A stretch of 64,000 nucleotides of DNA. It comes from Escherichia coli (lineage in GTDB: Bacteria; Pseudomonadota; Gammaproteobacteria; Enterobacterales; Enterobacteriaceae). The notes below the pieces were generated by a model, which saw only the letters and a list, made by a program, of their open reading frames with translations, had not been told where the DNA came from and searched no databases. Position 1 is the first letter of the stretch; each line of letters opens with the position of its first letter. Both the position numbers and the translations under genes were made by a program. This document shows, piece after piece, positions 48,808-55,927 of the stretch. The stretch is taken from assembly GCF_036507355.1 (NCBI RefSeq), contig NZ_AP027877.1, one strand, 5' to 3'.

Positions 48808-49371
48808 TTAGATTTTACCAACCAGGTCCAGAGACGGAGCCAGAGTTGCTTCACCTTCTTTCCATTTAGCCGGGCAAACTTCACCTGGGTGAGAAGCTAC
48901 GTACTGTGCTGCTTTGATTTTACGCAGCAGGTCAGACGCGTCACGGCCAATGCCTTCAGCGGTAACTTCGATTGCCTGGATGATACCCTGCGGGTCAACA
49001 ACGAAGGTCGCACGGTCAGCCAGACCTTCATCTTCACGCATGTTGTCGAAGTTACGGGTCAGGGCGCCAGTCGGGTCGCCGATCATCGCATATTTGATTT
49101 TAGCGATGGTTTCAGAGCTGCTGTGCCATGCTTTGTGGGTGAAGTGAGTATCGGTAGATACTGCGTATACGTCTACGCCCAGTTTCTGCAGTTCTTCGTA
49201 GTGGTCAGCAACGTCACCCAGTTCGGTCGGGCATACGAAAGTAAAGTCAGCCGGGTAGAAGAAGAAGACGCTCCAGCGGCCTTCGGTATCTTTTTCGGTG
49301 ATTTCGATGAATTCGCCGTTTTTGAATGCCTGGTTTTTAAAAGGTTTAATTTTGGTGTTAATCAAGGACAT
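48808..49371 (-). CDS. ahpC: alkyl hydroperoxide reductase subunit C (peroxiredoxin)
   Basis: 187 aa; peroxidatic Cys context FTFVCPTE. Confidence 0.95.
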
Positions 49372-49742
49372 CTATACTTCCTCCGTGTTTTCGATGAGAT
49401 GTAAGGTAACCAATTTTTGCCGATTCGGCTAATGCGTTTCCATTATCAAATCGATAAGTTTTACCTTACAACCTTCGTAAGACAACTTTGTGAACTTTGC
49501 ACCGCCAGCGGCGATAAAAAGTAAAATGGCCCCCTTTCCAGGTGACCGTGTAATCTGAACTACCCTTTGGTATCTTCAGCGCCTGCCTGCAGGCAGAGGT
49601 GTTGCCCTTACAAATGCAACAACGACATGGATTACAACACCCTCATAAACAAAGGGCAATCACCTGATCTAAGCTCTTACCTATGACAGTGATAGGTTAT
49701 GCCTTTTACTCGACTTTTGCACTGACTGAAAAGGACAAATTA

Positions 49743-50489
49743 ATGTTAAAAAAGATACTTTTACTGGCTCTGCTTCCTGCAATCGCCTTCGCAGAGGAAC
49801 TTCCTGCTCCAGTAAAAGCGATTGAAAAACAGGGTATTACGATCATCAAAACGTTCGATGCCCCCGGAGGAATGAAAGGTTATCTCGGAAAGTATCAGGA
49901 TATGGGCGTCACCATCTACCTGACTCCAGATGGTAAGCACGCTATCTCTGGTTACATGTACAACGAGAAAGGTGAAAACCTGAGTAACACACTTATCGAA
50001 AAAGAAATTTACGCACCAGCCGGACGCGAAATGTGGCAACGGATGGAACAATCCCACTGGCTCCTCGACGGTAAAAAAGACGCGCCGGTCATTGTCTACG
50101 TCTTCGCCGATCCGTTCTGCCCATATTGTAAACAGTTCTGGCAGCAGGCGCGCCCGTGGGTAGATTCTGGCAAAGTACAGTTGAGAACATTGTTGGTTGG
50201 GGTTATCAAACCAGAAAGTCCGGCGACAGCCGCGGCAATTCTTGCCTCCAAAGATCCCGCAAAAACCTGGCAAGAATATGAAGCCTCTGGTGGCAAGCTT
50301 AAGCTAAACGTGCCTGCAAACGTAAGTACAGAGCAAATGAAAGTGTTAAGCGACAACGAGAAACTCATGGACGATCTGGGGGCAAATGTCACTCCGGCTA
50401 TCTATTACATGAGTAAGGAAAATACGCTGCAACAGGCCGTGGGGTTGCCCGATCAGAAAACGCTTAATATCATTATGGGAAATAAATAA
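49743..50489 (+). CDS. dsbG: periplasmic disulfide isomerase/reductase DsbG
   Basis: ORF 49683..50489 trimmed to [17 protein letters not shown] signal peptide; thioredoxin-like CPYC; 248 aa. Confidence 0.9.
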
Positions 50490-50697
50490 AAGGTAATTCA
50501 TGGATGGTTGAACTATATCCCTGCTTTTCAACCATCCTAAAAAAGCATGAATTGCTCGCTCTGCCCTAAGTGGCTGTGCTATTTTAGAAAAACTTAATCC
50601 TGAGTTAAGCAAAAAAACATAATCAATAAAAATATATACGCAAAAAACATTGATTAAGTGAATATATCATGGAAGAAAAATATAACCGGAGTAGTGT

Positions 50698-51600
50698 ATG
50701 ACCAATCTCTACGACTTGAAAAAGTTCGACTTAAATCTTCTTGTCATATTTGAGTGTATTTACCAGCATTTAAGCATTAGCAAAGCTGCTGAATCACTAT
50801 ATATCACCCCATCAGCCGTGAGCCAGTCGTTACAACGCTTACGTGCGCAATTTAATGACCCTTTATTCATTCGCTCAGGAAAAGGTATCGCGCCGACGAC
50901 AACAGGGTTAAATCTGCATCACCATCTTGAGAAAAATCTCAGAGGCCTTGAACAAACAATTAATATAGTCAATAAGTCCGAACTAAAGAAAAACTTTATT
51001 ATTCACGGCCCTCAGCTCATTTCTTGCTCTAATAATAGTATGCTGATCCGCTGCCTACGGCAAGATTCCTCTGTCGAGATTGAGTGCCATGATATCCTCA
51101 TGTCAGCAGAGAATGCTGAAGAACTGTTGGTTCACCGCAAAGCCGATCTGGTGATCACCCAAATGCCAGTGATCAGCCGTTCCGTCATTTGCATGCCATT
51201 GCATACGATTCGCAATACTCTAATTTGTAGTAATAGGCATCCACGAATTACTGACAATAGCACTTATGAACAAATTATGGCAGAAGAGTTCACCCAATTA
51301 ATATCTAAATCAGCAGGGGTTGATGATATTCAAATGGAAATAGACGAGAGATTTATGAATCGCAAAATTTCATTTCGTGGTTCCTCTTTGCTGACAATCA
51401 TTAATAGCATTGCAGTTACAGATTTACTGGGAATAGTCCCCTATGAACTTTATAACTCCCACCGTGACTTTCTTAATTTAAAAGAGATAAAACTAGAACA
51501 TCCGTTACCTTCAATAAAGCTTTACATTTCCTATAATAAATCTTCTTTAAACAATCTGGTGTTCTCCCGATTTATTGACCGTCTAAATGAGTGTTTTTGA
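50698..51600 (+). CDS. ybdO: LysR-family transcriptional regulator
   Basis: 300 aa; N-terminal HTH; AT-rich gene and upstream region. Confidence 0.85.
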   Translation: MTNLYDLKKFDLNLLVIFECIYQHLSISKAAESLYITPSAVSQSLQRLRAQFNDPLFIRSGKGIAPTTTGLNLHHHLEKNLRGLEQTINIVNKSELKKNFIIHGPQLISCSNNSMLIRCLRQDSSVEIECHDILMSAENAEELLVHRKADLVITQMPVISRSVICMPLHTIRNTLICSNRHPRITDNSTYEQIMAEEFTQLISKSAGVDDIQMEIDERFMNRKISFRGSSLLTIINSIAVTDLLGIVPYELYNSHRDFLNLKEIKLEHPLPSIKLYISYNKSSLNNLVFSRFIDRLNECF

Positions 51601-51746
51601 TATATAACTTCAGACAGCTACTATAACTTTCACCTATTTATTCACAGCGCGAATGAAAAATAAAACACTCTGCTTTTCAGTGTTTACTTTATAATTAACA
51701 GTCTTATCTCACTGATCACCCTGTAACGTTCAGAGAGCGTCTTCAG

Positions 51747-52967
51747 ATGTCTATTTATAAAATTCCTCTTCCGCTCAATATTCTGGAAGCTGCACGAGAG
51801 CGTATTACCTGGACACTCAACACCCTACCCCGCGTTTGTGTCTCATTTTCTGGCGGCAAAGACTCTGGTTTAATGCTGCATCTGACAGCCGAACTTGCCC
51901 GACAAATGGGCAAAAAAATCTGCGTTTTGTTTATCGACTGGGAGGCGCAATTCTCTTGCACCATTAACTATGTTCAGTCCCTGCGCGAGTTGTACACCGA
52001 TGTCATCGAAGAGTTTTACTGGGTTGCGCTCCCGCTTACGACGCAAAATTCCCTTTCACAATACCAACCCGAATGGCAGTGCTGGGAACCTGATGTCGAA
52101 TGGGTGCGTCAGCCCCCGCAAGATGCGATAACCGATCCTGACTTTTTCTGCTTTTACCAGCCAGGCATGACCTTCGAACAATTTGTACGTGAGTTTGCCG
52201 AATGGTTTTCACAAAAACGTCCGGCGGCGATGATGATCGGCATCCGTGCGGATGAGTCCTACAACCGTTTTGTCGCCATCGCCAGTTTAAATAAACAACG
52301 TTTTGCCGACGATAAACCCTGGACTACGGCCGCACCAGGCGGTCATAGCTGGTACATTTACCCCATTTACGACTGGAAAGTGGCTGATATCTGGACCTGG
52401 TATGCAAATCATCAAAGTCTCTGCAACCCACTGTATAACCTAATGTATCAGGCAGGCGTTCCTCTGCGTCATATGCGAATTTGCGAACCTTTTGGCCCGG
52501 AGCAACGACAAGGATTATGGCTCTATCACGTTATCGAACCGGATCGCTGGGCTGCTATGTGCGCACGAGTCAGCGGGGTAAAAAGTGGCGGCATTTACGC
52601 CGGACATGACAATCATTTCTATGGGCATCGGAAAATCCTCAAGCCAGAACATTTAGACTGGCAAGAATATGCATTATTGCTGCTCAATAGCATGCCAGAA
52701 AAAACAGCTGAGCATTACCGCAATAAAATCGCCATTTATTTGCACTGGTATCAGAAAAAAGGCATCGAGGTTCCACAAACCCAGCAAGGGGACATTGGCG
52801 CGAAAGATATCCCTTCCTGGCGGCGGATATGCAAAGTTTTACTCAATAACGATTACTGGTGTCGGGCATTATCATTTAGTCCTACGAAAGCGAAGAACTA
52901 TCAGCGTTATAACGAACGGATAAAAGGAAAACGTCAGGAATGGGGGATACTATGCAACAACGATTAA
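51747..52967 (+). CDS. ybdN: PAPS-reductase-like PP-loop ATP pyrophosphatase family protein
   Basis: 406 aa; PP-loop motif SFSGGKDS near N-terminus. Confidence 0.85.
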   Translation: MSIYKIPLPLNILEAARERITWTLNTLPRVCVSFSGGKDSGLMLHLTAELARQMGKKICVLFIDWEAQFSCTINYVQSLRELYTDVIEEFYWVALPLTTQNSLSQYQPEWQCWEPDVEWVRQPPQDAITDPDFFCFYQPGMTFEQFVREFAEWFSQKRPAAMMIGIRADESYNRFVAIASLNKQRFADDKPWTTAAPGGHSWYIYPIYDWKVADIWTWYANHQSLCNPLYNLMYQAGVPLRHMRICEPFGPEQRQGLWLYHVIEPDRWAAMCARVSGVKSGGIYAGHDNHFYGHRKILKPEHLDWQEYALLLLNSMPEKTAEHYRNKIAIYLHWYQKKGIEVPQTQQGDIGAKDIPSWRRICKVLLNNDYWCRALSFSPTKAKNYQRYNERIKGKRQEWGILCNND

Positions 52968-53569
52968 CGCAGGATTTAACGCAATTTCTCGCCAGCTTGC
53001 CGGAAGATGATCGCATCAACGCGATTAATGAAATCCGCATGGCGATCCATCAGGTTAGCCCCTTTCGTGAAGAGCCAGTGGATTGCGTTCTGTGGGTTAA
53101 AAACAGCCAACTTATGCCTAATGATTACAACCCAAACAACGTGGCACCACCCGAAAAAAAACTGCTGAAAAAATCCATTGAAATAGATGGTTTTACCCAA
53201 CCCATTGTGGTCACGCATACGGATAAAAATGCCCTGGAAATCGTGGATGGTTTTCACCGCCATGAAATTGGTAAAGGCTCATCATTATTACAATTACGCT
53301 TAAAAGGTTATTTGCCGGTGACCTGTCTGGAAGGTACGCGTAATCAACGCATCGCCGCGACTATTCGTCATAATCGCGCTCGTGGACGCCATCAAATCAC
53401 CGCCATGTCGGAAATCGTCCGTGAACTTAGCCAGTTGGGATGGGACGATAATAAAATTGGCAAAGAGCTGGGAATGGACAGCGACGAAGTGCTGCGCCTG
53501 AAGCAAATTAACGGCCTGCAAGAGTTGTTTGCCGACCGTCAATATTCCCGCGCCTGGACGGTTAAATAG
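52940..53569 (+). CDS. ybdM: ParB/sulfiredoxin-like domain protein
   Basis: 209 aa; DGFHRH motif; overlaps ybdN 3' end by 28 nt. Confidence 0.8.
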   Translation: MGDTMQQRLTQDLTQFLASLPEDDRINAINEIRMAIHQVSPFREEPVDCVLWVKNSQLMPNDYNPNNVAPPEKKLLKKSIEIDGFTQPIVVTHTDKNALEIVDGFHRHEIGKGSSLLQLRLKGYLPVTCLEGTRNQRIAATIRHNRARGRHQITAMSEIVRELSQLGWDDNKIGKELGMDSDEVLRLKQINGLQELFADRQYSRAWTVK

Positions 53570-54730
53570 CTAAAGCTGGCGCAGGCGTTCAGCTGCTGCC
53601 AGCAACGTCGATTCCTTCTTGGCAAAACAGAGACGAATCAGTTTATGAGGGAAGGGATCGGCGCAAAACACCGATAGCGGAATCGCCGCTACGCCGTGCT
53701 CCTGCGTCAGCCACTGGCAAAACTCAACATCATCCAGGGTAGATACGGCGCTGTAATCCACCAGCAAAAAGTATGTACCTTCACACGGTAAAATCTCCAG
53801 CCGGCTTTCATTTAAAGCATTCACCAGAATATCGCGCTTCTGGCGATAAAAGTCCGGTAACGCAAGATAATGCTCAGGTTCTGCACATAGCATATCAGCA
53901 AGCGCCAGCTGTGCCGGGGTATTCACCGAAAAGGTCAGATACTGATGTACCTTGCGAATTTCGGCACTGATGGGCGCTGGCGCAACGCAATAACCCACTT
54001 TCCAGCCGGTCATATGATAGGTCTTGCCAAACGATGACACCGCCACTGCCCGCTCACGCAGCTGCGGATGTGCCAGCACGCTGGCATGGCCCTGCTGTGA
54101 AAAGTTGATGTGCTCGTAGACTTCATCGCTAATGACAAAAATCTCGTGCCCGGCAATCGCCTGCCACAAAGCGGCGAAATCAGCCTGCTGCCAGACAGTA
54201 GCGCTGGGGTTATGCGGTGTGTTGAGGATCACCAGTCGGGTACGATCGCTTAACAAAGCGGCAAACTCCTGCCAGTCCACGCGAAAATACGGCGGTTGCA
54301 GCGCAATACGTTTCACTATCCCCCCAGAAAGCACGATGGCAGGGGCGTAACTGTCATAGCTGGGATCAAAACAAATCACTTCGTCGCCATTGCGCACCAA
54401 TGCGGTTATCGCTGCGTATAACGCCTCCGTCGCCCCTGCCGTCACGGTGATATCGCTGTCGGCATCCGGTTGATAGCCATACAGACGTTCCGTTTTCTGA
54501 GCAATCGCCTCGCGCAATGCCTGCACGCCGGTCATGGGCGCGTATTGGTTTGCCCCCTGGGCAACGTGGTACGCCAGCCGCTCCTGTAAATAGCGCGGAC
54601 CATCAAAATCAGGAAAGCCTTGCGAAAGGTTAATCGCCTGGTGTTGCTGCGCCAGCGCGCTCATCTGGGTGAAAATAGTGGTGCCAAGTTGTGGAAGTTT
54701 GCTTTGTGGAATCAGAGGGTTATTTGTCAT
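53570..54730 (-). CDS. ybdL: PLP-dependent aminotransferase (methionine-oxo-acid transaminase)
   Basis: 386 aa; aminotransferase class I fold with SFGKT lysine motif. Confidence 0.9.
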   Translation of the reverse strand: MTNNPLIPQSKLPQLGTTIFTQMSALAQQHQAINLSQGFPDFDGPRYLQERLAYHVAQGANQYAPMTGVQALREAIAQKTERLYGYQPDADSDITVTAGATEALYAAITALVRNGDEVICFDPSYDSYAPAIVLSGGIVKRIALQPPYFRVDWQEFAALLSDRTRLVILNTPHNPSATVWQQADFAALWQAIAGHEIFVISDEVYEHINFSQQGHASVLAHPQLRERAVAVSSFGKTYHMTGWKVGYCVAPAPISAEIRKVHQYLTFSVNTPAQLALADMLCAEPEHYLALPDFYRQKRDILVNALNESRLEILPCEGTYFLLVDYSAVSTLDDVEFCQWLTQEHGVAAIPLSVFCADPFPHKLIRLCFAKKESTLLAAAERLRQL

Positions 54731-54838
54731 TTTTATTGTGCCTGACGAAGTTGTGTGTTGAAGGCACTATAACACGATGCTAGTATTTGGCAATCAAGAC
54801 GTTTAGATGTCTAAATAAAACAACAAGGACAACACAAC

Positions 54839-55927
54839 ATGCCTCACAATCCTATCCGCGTGGTCGTCGGCCCGGCTAACTACTTTTCACATCCAGGAAG
54901 TTTCAATCACCTGCACGATTTTTTCACTGATGAACAACTTTCTCGCGCGGTGTGGATCTACGGCGAACGCGCCATTGCTGCGGCGCAAACCAAACTTCCG
55001 CCAGCGTTTGGACTTCCAGGGGCAAAGCATATTTTGTTTCGTGGTCATTGCAGCGAAAGCGATGTACAGCAACTGGCGGCTGAGTCCGATGACGATCGCA
55101 GCGTGGTGATTGGCGTCGGCGGCGGCGCACTACTCGACACCGCGAAAGCCCTCGCCCGCCGTCTCGGTCTGCCATTTGTTGCCGCTCCAACGATCGCCGC
55201 CACCTGCGCCGCCTGGACACCGCTCTCCGTCTGGTATAACGATGCCGGACAGGCGCTGCATTATGAGATTTTCGACGACGCCAATTTTATGGTGCTGGTG
55301 GAACCAGAGATTATCCTCAATGCGCCGCAACAATATCTGCTGGCGGGGATCGGTGACACGCTGGCGAAATGGTATGAAGCGGTGGTGCTGGCTCCGCAAC
55401 CAGAAACGTTGCCGCTAACCGTGCGACTGGGGATCAATAATGCGCAGGCCATTCGCGACGTCTTGTTAAACAGTAGCGAACAGGCGCTGAGCGATCAGCA
55501 AAATCAACAGTTAACGCAATCATTTTGCGATGTGGTGGATGCTATTATTGCTGGTGGTGGGATGGTCGGTGGTCTGGGCGATCGTTTTACGCGTGTGGCG
55601 GCGGCTCATGCCGTGCATAACGGTCTGACCGTGCTGCCGCAAACCGAGAAGTTTCTTCACGGCACCAAAGTCGCCTACGGAATTCTGGTGCAAAGCGCCT
55701 TGCTGGGTCAGGATGATGTTCTGGCGCAATTAACTGGAGCGTATCAGCGTTTTCATCTGCCGACTACGCTGGCGGAGCTGGAAGTGGATATCAATAATCA
55801 GGCGGAGATCGACAAAGTGATTGCCCACACCTTGCGCCCGGTGGAGTCCATTCATTACCTGCCAGTCACGCTGACACCAGATACGTTGCGTGCAGCGTTC
55901 GAAAAAGTGGAATCGTTTAAAGCCTGA
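54839..55927 (+). CDS. ybdH: iron-containing alcohol/hydroxycarboxylate dehydrogenase (glycerol dehydrogenase-like)
   Basis: 362 aa; GVGGGALLDTAKA nucleotide-binding motif. Confidence 0.88.
   Translation: MPHNPIRVVVGPANYFSHPGSFNHLHDFFTDEQLSRAVWIYGERAIAAAQTKLPPAFGLPGAKHILFRGHCSESDVQQLAAESDDDRSVVIGVGGGALLDTAKALARRLGLPFVAAPTIAATCAAWTPLSVWYNDAGQALHYEIFDDANFMVLVEPEIILNAPQQYLLAGIGDTLAKWYEAVVLAPQPETLPLTVRLGINNAQAIRDVLLNSSEQALSDQQNQQLTQSFCDVVDAIIAGGGMVGGLGDRFTRVAAAHAVHNGLTVLPQTEKFLHGTKVAYGILVQSALLGQDDVLAQLTGAYQRFHLPTTLAELEVDINNQAEIDKVIAHTLRPVESIHYLPVTLTPDTLRAAFEKVESFKA

Follow-up and report, generated by a model that had tools for sequence, protein, structure and literature searches.

Among the PP-loop enzymes, the clade that resembles phosphoadenosine phosphosulfate (PAPS) reductase includes CysD, flavin mononucleotide (FMN) adenylyltransferase, the adenosine phosphosulfate (APS) and PAPS reductases, and DndC. 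The enzymes of the CysD and FMN adenylyltransferase clade move AMP to phosphate or sulfate oxyanions; base carbonyls are the groups adenylated by TilS and ThiI, PP-loop enzymes that stand further off. DndC possesses conserved cysteines for an Fe-S cluster or for sulfur transfer. DndC and DndB join a PAPS-reductase-like PP-loop ATP pyrophosphatase with a DGxHR protein of the ParB/sulfiredoxin (Srx) superfamily, a scheme that is also met in SspD and in BrxP of type 4 BREX, and the presumed target is DNA. Another described pair is IbrA/IbrB: according to Sandt (2002), as relayed by a citing paper, IbrAB of ECOR-9 enhances the expression of the prophage eib genes. Here we consider the ybdO-ybdN-ybdM locus of Escherichia coli as found in a 64,000-nucleotide stretch (contig NZ_AP027877.1, assembly GCF_036507355.1), hereafter the window. 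An earlier note, made from the sequence of the window, took ybdN and ybdM for an uncharacterised and possibly horizontally acquired pair with a candidate role in nucleic-acid modification or in something like defence. We argue that the pair belongs, almost certainly, to the IbrA/IbrB family; the more specific view that the locus is the core-chromosome copy of the IbrA/IbrB module, placed under its own repressor and acting on DNA in an ATP-dependent manner, stands in our estimate at an even chance.

The family assignment draws on several traits. YbdN has the architecture of IbrA, with a PAPS_reduct domain followed by DUF3440, and YbdM has that of IbrB, with ParB_N, the DGxHR motif, the RHNRARGxH motif and a C-terminal region resembling a helix-turn-helix (HTH). 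The genes of the family are adjacent, co-oriented and usually overlapping, and so are ybdN and ybdM; ybdNM also agrees with ibrAB in the order and overlap of the genes and in the conserved motifs. At the level of identity, YbdN and YbdM match IbrA and IbrB of Escherichia phage PhiR5_2 at 56.6% and 57%, respectively. In RefSeq, YbdM already bears the product name 'IbrB-like domain-containing protein', and YbdO is the published repressor CitR (a match of 458.7 bits to the NCBIfam equivalog NF047710, with a cut-off of 400), so that the pair cannot be called unrecognised, even if YbdM was referred to as "completely uncharacterized" as late as 2022 (PMC8764527). Two differences separate ybdNM from ibrAB: ybdNM is core, syntenic and has its own LysR-type repressor, whereas ibrAB is accessory; and ibrAB has the eib genes as targets, whereas no target of the eib type is known for YbdNM.

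The pairing of the two genes is nearly absolute. A tblastn search of phage genomes yielded relatives of YbdN in 224 records and relatives of YbdM in 225, with an identical breakdown by host (Flavobacterium 90, Mycobacterium 60, Streptococcus 21, Arthrobacter 12, Bacillus 8, and others). The survey of genomes covered 80 loci from bacterial and archaeal genomes, one genome per species, along with 6 phage loci from GenBank, and the IbrB genes were located by a six-frame hidden Markov model search. In every genome locus for which the sequence is available, IbrB adjoins IbrA, usually immediately 3' of it and often overlapping it; one contig breaks off 40 nt past ybdN. Represented among the loci are Proteobacteria, Bacteroidota, Firmicutes, Verrucomicrobiota, Campylobacterota and one Heimdallarchaeon. 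The order of the two genes is more variable in viral contigs than in genomes, and IbrB lies no more than four genes from IbrA, on the same strand, in 71 of the 76 IMG/VR contigs (93%) that have room on the relevant side. The distance matrices of IbrA and IbrB from 139 loci are correlated (Mantel r=0.67, with 0 of 999 permutations as high), which indicates that the two proteins travel together. IbrB is the more conserved of the two (mean distance 0.45, versus 0.56 for IbrA) and remains 41-57% identical to YbdM across phyla. The extensions of the long representatives (P0243, P0298, P0310, P0372 and P0355) proved to be unrelated or of low complexity. Overlaps of 4-29 nt are common in the other loci, and the overlap between ybdN and ybdM is the same in all syntenic enterobacterial loci; ybdN and ybdM are translationally coupled and inherited as a unit, in line with the coupled expression proposed before. 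Thus, the two proteins neither fall into unrelated families, as the domain searches show, nor part company in other genomes.

YbdN combines significant matches to PAPS_reduct (PF01507, E=1e-13) and DUF3440 (PF11922, E=5e-23) in Pfam with a match to PHROG 2302 at E=1e-76, in agreement with its earlier placement in the PP-loop/PAPS-reductase superfamily. Among the PP-loop enzymes it falls in the PAPS-reductase-like clade, nearest to the AMP-transferring enzymes CysD and FMN adenylyltransferase. The AlphaFold (AF2) model of YbdN, built with 50 diverse homologues as input, has a mean predicted local distance difference test score (pLDDT) of 90.3. The DUF3440 half is all-helical in this model, and no solved structure could be aligned to it; a search by sequence for a close relative with a solved structure found none for either YbdN or YbdM. 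Among 163 homologues, the SGGKDS motif and the residues D64, E66, R167, E170, S171, R174, D209, D214 and, within DUF3440, R244, W268, R274 and D369 vary hardly or not at all, a set that argues for an active enzyme transferring the alpha-phosphate of ATP. Judging from this conservation, YbdN is likely to be catalytically active. No cysteine is invariant in the same 163 homologues (C372 is found in 93% and C246 in 58% of them, and the patterns vary), which argues against a mechanism of sulfur transfer via an Fe-S cluster or persulfide common to the whole family.

It is here that YbdN parts from DndC, in spite of the reasonable analogy between ybdNM and the pairs of the DndB/DndC type that had been drawn at the outset. 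The IbrA family lacks the conserved Fe-S/persulfide cysteines; YbdN scores just 22.2 bits against the DndC model TIGR03183 (cut-off 290.4) and 21.8 bits against the DndC model of PADLOC; and, unlike DndC, it carries DUF3440. Nor does the locus contain dndA/iscS, dndD, dndE or a cysteine desulfurase, its neighbours being dsbG, ahpCF, ybdL, hcxA and cstA. The partners differ as well, since IbrB is a constant adjacent partner, whereas DndB is a negative regulator. From CysD, FMN adenylyltransferase and CysH, YbdN is distinguished by its length of 406 aa, by the extra conserved helical domain and by its obligatory ParB-like partner. As YbdN reaches no curated family threshold, its RefSeq name "phosphoadenosine phosphosulfate reductase" is a label of the domain and not of the function. 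It will probably misdirect metabolic reconstructions, as well as the calling of 'auxiliary metabolic genes' in phages.

For YbdM, the Pfam ParB_N match is at E=2e-4 with a single sequence, the family profile matches Noc at E=4e-7, and PHROG 2159 is matched at E=2e-68, so that the domain searches agree with the view of YbdM as a ParB/Srx-like protein. In a Foldseek search with the AF2 model (pLDDT 85.5), the matches were to CDP- or CTP-bound ParB, Noc and KorB, at E-values from 5e-8 to 4e-7 and over 135-175 aligned columns, which cover both the N-domain and the HTH; Srx and SbnI are more distant matches of the same fold. In the model, the helices 153-165, 170-177 and 181-197 form the C-terminal part, and the chain ends at residue 209, right after the last HTH helix. 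Among 49 homologues of IbrB, 31 columns are invariant, including N61, N64, P65, N66, E72, D103, G104, R107, the run R143-H-N-R-A-R-G149, H151, G178, M179, D182, E183 and Q189; H106 is conserved in at least 90%.

The ParB-type fold, with its N-domain and HTH, is thus shared with the CTP-dependent clamps and regulators ParB, Noc, KorB and VirB. In the alignment with Noc, DGFHR falls on the GERR box, and from the order of secondary-structure elements in the model we infer that RHNRAR is the equivalent of the "ENxxR" box of ParB. YbdM retains the arginine of the GERR box and the Asn/Arg pair at the 'ENxxR' position. It differs from ParB, Noc and KorB in that DGFHRH replaces GERRxRA, with a phenylalanine in place of the catalytic glutamate; the parB_part model TIGR00180 gives 15.9 bits against a cut-off of 58.45; and the locus contains neither a ParA partner nor an identified parS. 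Accordingly, the predicted pocket looks intact and yet unlike that of the CTPase clamps, with a motif nearer to the DGxHR/GCHR branch of DndB, sulfiredoxin and SbnI. One more comparison is with the DpdA/DpdB proteins of 7-deazaguanine modification and with the phage ParB-methyltransferase fusions, in which a ParB-like NTPase or DNA-targeting domain is likewise combined with a DNA-modifying enzyme. The ParB part of phage DNA methyltransferases matches YbdM (PHROG 498 at 1e-10, and MTase_II of PADLOC). The partner in these systems, however, is a transglycosylase or a methyltransferase, in contrast to the PP-loop enzyme of ybdNM, and no homology to DpdA was seen.

Outside Enterobacteriaceae, the commonest neighbour is a helicase of the SNF2 family (SNF2-rel_dom, Helicase_C and ResIII in Pfam; PHROG 62 and 16), whose gene immediately precedes ibrA in 17 genome and phage loci and was found by clustering in 18 + 6 viral loci; in 34 of 150 loci, an SF2/SNF2 helicase lies no more than three genes away. 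Further products encoded repeatedly near the pair in viruses are the large terminase subunit (TerL), an exonuclease, a DnaB-like helicase, NinG/Rap, a DNA methyltransferase and DnaD/O-like initiators. In particular, Mycobacterium phage Kamiyu encodes a ParB-like protein (gp1), a PAPS-reductase-like protein (gp4), IbrB (gp5) and a terminase (gp6); in Arthrobacter phage Laroye, a ParB-like protein, the PAPS reductase homologue, IbrB and a methyltransferase are followed by the small terminase subunit (TerS) and TerL; and in Bacillus phage 055SW001 a ParB-like protein, the PAPS reductase homologue, a methyltransferase and IbrB are found at the genome end. In phages of Streptococcus, Lactobacillus and Clostridium, the SNF2 helicase, IbrA and IbrB are placed between the lysis and the early genes, and in Microcystis phage Mwe-JY13 two ParB/Srx genes and IbrA are followed by recombination genes. 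The IbrA/IbrB pair of phages, then, is found among genes that act on DNA.

The modules of actinobacteriophages, Bacillus phages and Microcystis phages contain one or two extra ParB-like genes, often together with a small methyltransferase gene, directly 5' of the terminase genes (L091:73-2720, L092:226-6106, L093:2220-5510 and L006:3906-6191), which implies that the phage module is larger than the two genes retained in E. coli. A separate observation concerns Bacteroidota, where in 16 loci a conserved protein of about 136 aa is encoded immediately upstream of ibrA (e.g. L041:9569-9997), that is, at the place that the SNF2 helicase takes elsewhere; this protein has no significant match in Pfam or PHROG, the sole hit, to GNAT, being non-significant.

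Within E. coli, the locus belongs to the core. Of 5426 complete genomes, 5422 contain the 3-kb segment, at least 80% of its length being covered in 5321, and the order ahpF, (dsbG), ybdO, ybdN, ybdM, ybdL is kept in Citrobacter, Enterobacter, Kluyvera, Pseudocitrobacter and Superficieibacter, in which the proteins are 73-84% (YbdN), 62-78% (YbdM) and 49-59% (YbdO) identical to those of the window. The ratio of nonsynonymous to synonymous substitution rates (dN/dS) between E. coli alleles is 0.04 for ybdN and 0.10 for ybdM, so that both genes are under purifying selection. Taken together, the near-universal presence, the synteny and the purifying selection indicate that the module is an old component of this enterobacterial chromosome that has been retained, rather than a mobile defence island. 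Horizontal acquisition, accordingly, can be maintained in an ancient sense and not as a recent event, given the synteny across Enterobacteriaceae. The repressor gene is less constant: of 10 syntenic enterobacterial loci, 2 lack it or hold a degraded copy and yet keep ybdNM. Paralogous accessory ibrAB genes occur in 1930 of the 5426 E. coli genomes, in up to 4 copies and in 66 cases on plasmids, with some 83-84% nucleotide identity to ibrAB of phage PhiR5_2. They sit in islands and prophages, including the IS-rich islands (rich in insertion sequences) of Nissle 1917 and of O157:H7, where they are found beside perC and an AAA-domain gene (L095:8953-10805 and L096:8978-10833).

Some signs of decay were noticed: ybdM seems to be split in Escherichia albertii NBRC 107761 (L009:1154-1309), Shigella often has shortened forms of 163-167 aa, and some E. 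coli strains have IS1 insertions in ybdO. The ybdO gene itself exists in E. coli as two deeply diverged alleles, with a synonymous distance (dS) of 1.97, i.e. saturated, a dN/dS of 0.035 and an amino-acid identity of 88%, as against a dS of just 0.02-0.25 for the neighbouring genes between the same alleles. The divergent stretch comprises positions 50500-51900 of the window, namely ybdO and both spacers (compared with L007:3000-4400), and the region upstream of ybdO is among its most divergent parts. About a third of the complete genomes (1773) fall into the band of 80-90% identity; K-12 is of the window type. Diversification of the promoter of ybdO and of its coding region among E. coli lineages, under repression by H-NS, is already on record (PMC4720273); the sharp division into two alleles, with its limits, may merit closer inspection.

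The published data on regulation show that ybdNM is normally kept silent. A chromatin immunoprecipitation-exonuclease (ChIP-exo) peak of CitR was found upstream of citR, CitR represses ybdNM, and deletion of citR raises the expression of ybdN by 5.5 and of ybdM by 2.5 log2 units (PMC9068703). The ybdO gene, in turn, is repressed by H-NS (PMC4720273, PMC9141747), which binds the locus; its transcription start site lies 107 bp 5' of the start codon, and both upstream and downstream H-NS-dependent elements were described (PMC4720273). The YbdM protein was found to be 29-fold more abundant in cells with a CTX-M-15 plasmid (PMC8764527). The genes that are up-regulated in the citR deletion include flagellar genes and those of the CysB regulon (Table 1 of PMC9068703). 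When these are set aside, eight of the ten remaining genes in that table fall within b0601-b0641, namely ybdN, ybdM, ahpC, citC, citE, citF, pagP and lptE (pagP to ybdM corresponds to 31315-53569 in the window), and no CitR peak was reported at cit (PMC9068703). This regional pattern could be due to action of YbdM in cis, to regional amplification or to direct control by CitR. The whole CysB regulon (cysDNC, cysJIH, cysAUW, tcyP and yeeE) rises by 2-3 log2 units in the same deletion (PMC9068703), which may hint that derepressed YbdN perturbs a pool of sulfur compounds, PAPS, cysteine or nucleotides.

The reading that we consider the best is that YbdNM is a two-protein unit of phage origin, domesticated long ago and kept off in E. 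coli by CitR and H-NS. Its mechanism can be envisaged as follows. YbdM would bind DNA, and probably also a nucleoside triphosphate (NTP), and would form a complex with YbdN, so positioning the latter on DNA. YbdN would then split ATP to AMP and pyrophosphate and, by adenylylation, modify or activate a DNA-associated target, the outcome being altered gene expression, as reported for IbrAB on prophage eib. The SNF2 helicase, where present, would supply translocation or strand opening. In phages, the module is a part of the gene set for DNA metabolism, often placed just before the terminase genes. To such a DNA-directed, ATP-dependent mechanism, taken by itself, we would assign a likelihood that lies between an even chance and somewhat below it. 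The bolder idea that IbrA/IbrB, with or without the SNF2 helicase, constitutes an undescribed ATP-dependent epigenetic system of DNA modification, which would be neither methylation nor phosphorothioation, is rather doubtful at present. The suggestion of nucleic-acid modification, made in the earlier note, has nevertheless been strengthened by the gene context in phages.

Several observations weigh against the proposed mechanism. No member of the family has a demonstrated modification chemistry or a demonstrated affinity for DNA, the literature searches turned up no paper that assigns a biochemical activity, and the single activity reported for the family, in the account available through the citing paper, is the transcriptional effect of IbrAB on eib. 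The enzymes closest to YbdN in structure have small molecules (sulfate, FMN and PAPS) rather than nucleic acids as substrates, and the induction of the CysB regulon in the ybdO deletion could point to a small-molecule substrate from sulfur or nucleotide metabolism. A helicase accompanies the pair in just about 23% of the loci, and in E. coli both a helicase and a methyltransferase are missing from the locus; no fusion of IbrA with IbrB was found among 80 viral loci; and several bacterial loci, among them one each from Bacteroides, Listeria and Dorea, show no clear prophage signature by PHROG annotation.

Of the competing explanations, the strongest is that YbdNM works as a co-activator or anti-silencer without any covalent modification of DNA: YbdM, as an NTP-switched clamp similar to VirB or KorB, would load near its own locus, slide and displace H-NS, and YbdN would merely supply, sense or recycle the nucleotide ligand. 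The fold of YbdM, HTH included, is closest to that of the CTP-dependent clamps ParB, Noc and KorB, the single phenotype relayed for the family is activation of prophage genes, the locus itself is bound by H-NS, and the genes induced in the citR deletion cluster around ybdNM, with no CitR peak at cit. We still regard this explanation as improbable, because YbdM lacks the GERRxRA box and shows no apparent C-terminal dimerisation domain in the model, and because a constant PP-loop partner with invariant catalytic residues, as well as the placement of the pair in phages next to helicases and methyltransferases, would be left unexplained; the regional pattern, moreover, could reflect local amplification (ahpC and lptE rise by just 1.2 log2 units) or direct action of CitR. 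The conserved residues of YbdN could also serve another substrate, such as a tRNA or rRNA base (cf. TilS, TtuA and ThiI), a protein terminus (cf. the QueC-like Cap9) or a phosphorylated or sulfated metabolite, in which case YbdM would be an ATP-dependent kinase partner similar to sulfiredoxin or to a serine kinase and not a DNA binder. The resemblance of the DGxHR motif to the sulfiredoxin/SbnI/SerK branch, the presence of Srx and SbnI among the fold matches and the rise of the CysB regulon in the strain with derepressed ybdN speak for this possibility, which is less probable still: the conserved HTH-like C-terminal half of YbdM and its ParB-type fold point to DNA, as do the neighbouring genes for DNA helicases, methyltransferases, recombination proteins and terminase, and Pfam detected no tRNA- or RNA-binding domain in YbdN or YbdM.

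A role in anti-phage defence, after the manner of Dnd, Ssp or type 4 BREX, would imply that host DNA is marked, so that a partner nuclease could cut invading DNA without the mark, or that infection is aborted. The combination of a PP-loop enzyme with a ParB/Srx-like protein is indeed common to DndC/DndB, and accessory ibrAB copies do occur in IS-rich islands. The scan against PADLOC-DB v2, however, produced no significant defence match, but just weak, partial ones to DndC (2e-5), BrxP (1e-4) and MTase_II at 16-22 bits. Given that the DndC score is far below its threshold, that no dnd genes, restriction partner or cysteine desulfurase lie nearby amid the housekeeping neighbours, that no cysteine is conserved throughout the family, that the locus is core, syntenic across genera and normally silenced, and that the relatives are mostly carried by phages (about 224 phage genomes, those of virulent phages included), which suits a function for the phage better than one against it, a defence role is very unlikely, and the label 'defence-like' finds no support. 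Most remote is the notion that YbdN is a true PAPS reductase, i.e. an auxiliary CysH, as its RefSeq name, the PAPS_reduct match, the fold match to CysH and the accompanying rise of the cys regulon when citR is deleted (PMC9068703) might suggest; we give it hardly any credence. The CysH and PAPS_reductase models of NCBIfam yield 34-35 bits against cut-offs of 154-254, SGGKDS is a canonical loop of the ATP type, as in CysD, FMN adenylyltransferase and DndC, the candidate for the catalytic C-terminal cysteine of CysH (C246, in MRICEPFG) is a cysteine in just 95 of the 163 homologues, and neither the obligatory ParB-like partner nor DUF3440 has a role in sulfate reduction.

The coordinates of the locus are collected in Table 1. 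As judged from the open reading frame (ORF) calls and gene order, the window is an ordinary piece of E. coli chromosome, running from pagP and cspE via dcuC, dpiBA, citCDEFXGT, rna, rnk, ybdR, uspG, ahpFC and dsbG to ybdO, ybdN, ybdM, ybdL, hcxA (ybdH), ybdD, cstA and the ent/fep cluster. The features described in the earlier note were confirmed: the three ORFs at the stated positions, SGGKDS in YbdN, DGFHRH in YbdM, the 28-nt overlap and the AT-rich ybdO.

Table 1. Features of the ybdO-ybdN-ybdM locus, in window coordinates
Feature	Position	Strand	Basis or remark
ybdO (citR) upstream regulatory region, AT-rich	50490..50697	+	GC 0.36-0.38
ybdO (citR), LysR-type repressor of ybdNM, 300 aa	50698..51600	+	ORF and NCBIfam equivalog
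146-nt spacer between ybdO and ybdN, presumed promoter region of ybdNM	51601..51746	+	
ybdN, IbrA-family PP-loop enzyme, 406 aa	51747..52967	+	Pfam, PHROG, AF2
YbdN N-terminal PAPS-reductase-like domain, aa 30-234	51834..52448	+	Pfam
YbdN PP-loop SGGKDS, S35-S40	51849-51866	+	from ORF translation
YbdN C-terminal DUF3440 helical domain, aa 237-383	52455..52895	+	Pfam and model
ybdN/ybdM overlap	52940..52967	+	28 nt with the first ATG; 16 nt with the ATG at 52952
ybdM, IbrB-family ParB/Srx-like protein, 209 aa	52940..53569	+	Pfam, PHROG, AF2, Foldseek
YbdM DGFHRH, aa 103-108, in the place held by the GERR box in ParB and by GCHR in sulfiredoxin	53246..53263	+	
YbdM RHNRARGxH, aa 143-151	53366..53392	+	invariant columns
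YbdM C-terminal HTH-like helical region, aa 153-197, with LGMDxDExLRLKQ	53396..53530	+	

The GC content falls to 0.34-0.43 across 50250-52000, that is, ybdO and its flanks, as compared with about 0.50-0.58 in the surroundings. With either of the two in-frame ATG codons of ybdM, the gene overlaps ybdN; the shorter form agrees with the 205-aa homologues of Citrobacter and with the 16-nt overlap of the ibrAB paralogues. Since both candidate start codons sit within codons of ybdN, their conservation cannot tell which of them is used. The spacer between ybdO and ybdN lacks conservation, both from genus to genus and between the two alleles of E. coli; it contains an imperfect inverted repeat (51652-51696) and a weak sigma-70-like match at 51597-51624 that is no better than chance, the scan for promoters and terminators having given a number of matches at or below the chance level, and no conserved palindrome, operator or parS site was found in this spacer. 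A scan of 49300-54900 with Rfam gave no match within ybdO-ybdN-ybdM. The single hit lies outside it, in the intergenic region between ahpC and dsbG, where the enterobacterial small RNA STnc70 was matched on the - strand at 49516-49609 (45.3 bits against a gathering threshold of 40, E=6e-7). The longest ORF of dsbG (49683-50489) starts at 49683 and encodes 268 aa, whereas the RefSeq form has 248 aa, with a start equivalent to 49743, an ordinary ambiguity of start codons.

The object itself, its annotation at the level of domains, its regulator and the family name were known already. What is added here is, on the one hand, the near-absolute pairing of IbrA with IbrB, the set of invariant residues and the lack of conserved cysteines, and, on the other hand, the context of helicases, methyltransferases and terminases and the distinction between the core ybdNM and the accessory ibrAB. 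The family is very strongly conserved: nearly all E. coli have it, as do many Bacteroidota and Firmicutes of the gut, several hundred phages and an Asgard archaeal virus; the IbrAB module is present in about 0.4% of sequenced phages and in many gut bacteria. With the comparative picture, the reaction to be looked for is confined to one that is directed at DNA and consumes ATP, and the residues for mutagenesis are identified. If the reading of YbdNM as a DNA-modifying system were true, derepressed YbdNM would rewrite gene expression both locally (cit, ahpC and pagP) and globally (the CysB regulon and flagella), which would explain the 'activation' of prophage genes by IbrAB as well as those effects of the citR deletion, the majority, that have no CitR site. 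Unless its reaction turns out to be either a new DNA modification or a new kind of anti-silencing switch, ybdNM would be an ordinary, correctly annotated pair. Should it prove to be one of these, this would bear on the conflict between phages and their hosts, on the activation of prophage genes in pathogenic E. coli, and on how the phenotypes of CitR/YbdO, namely those in capsule, motility and citrate, are to be read.

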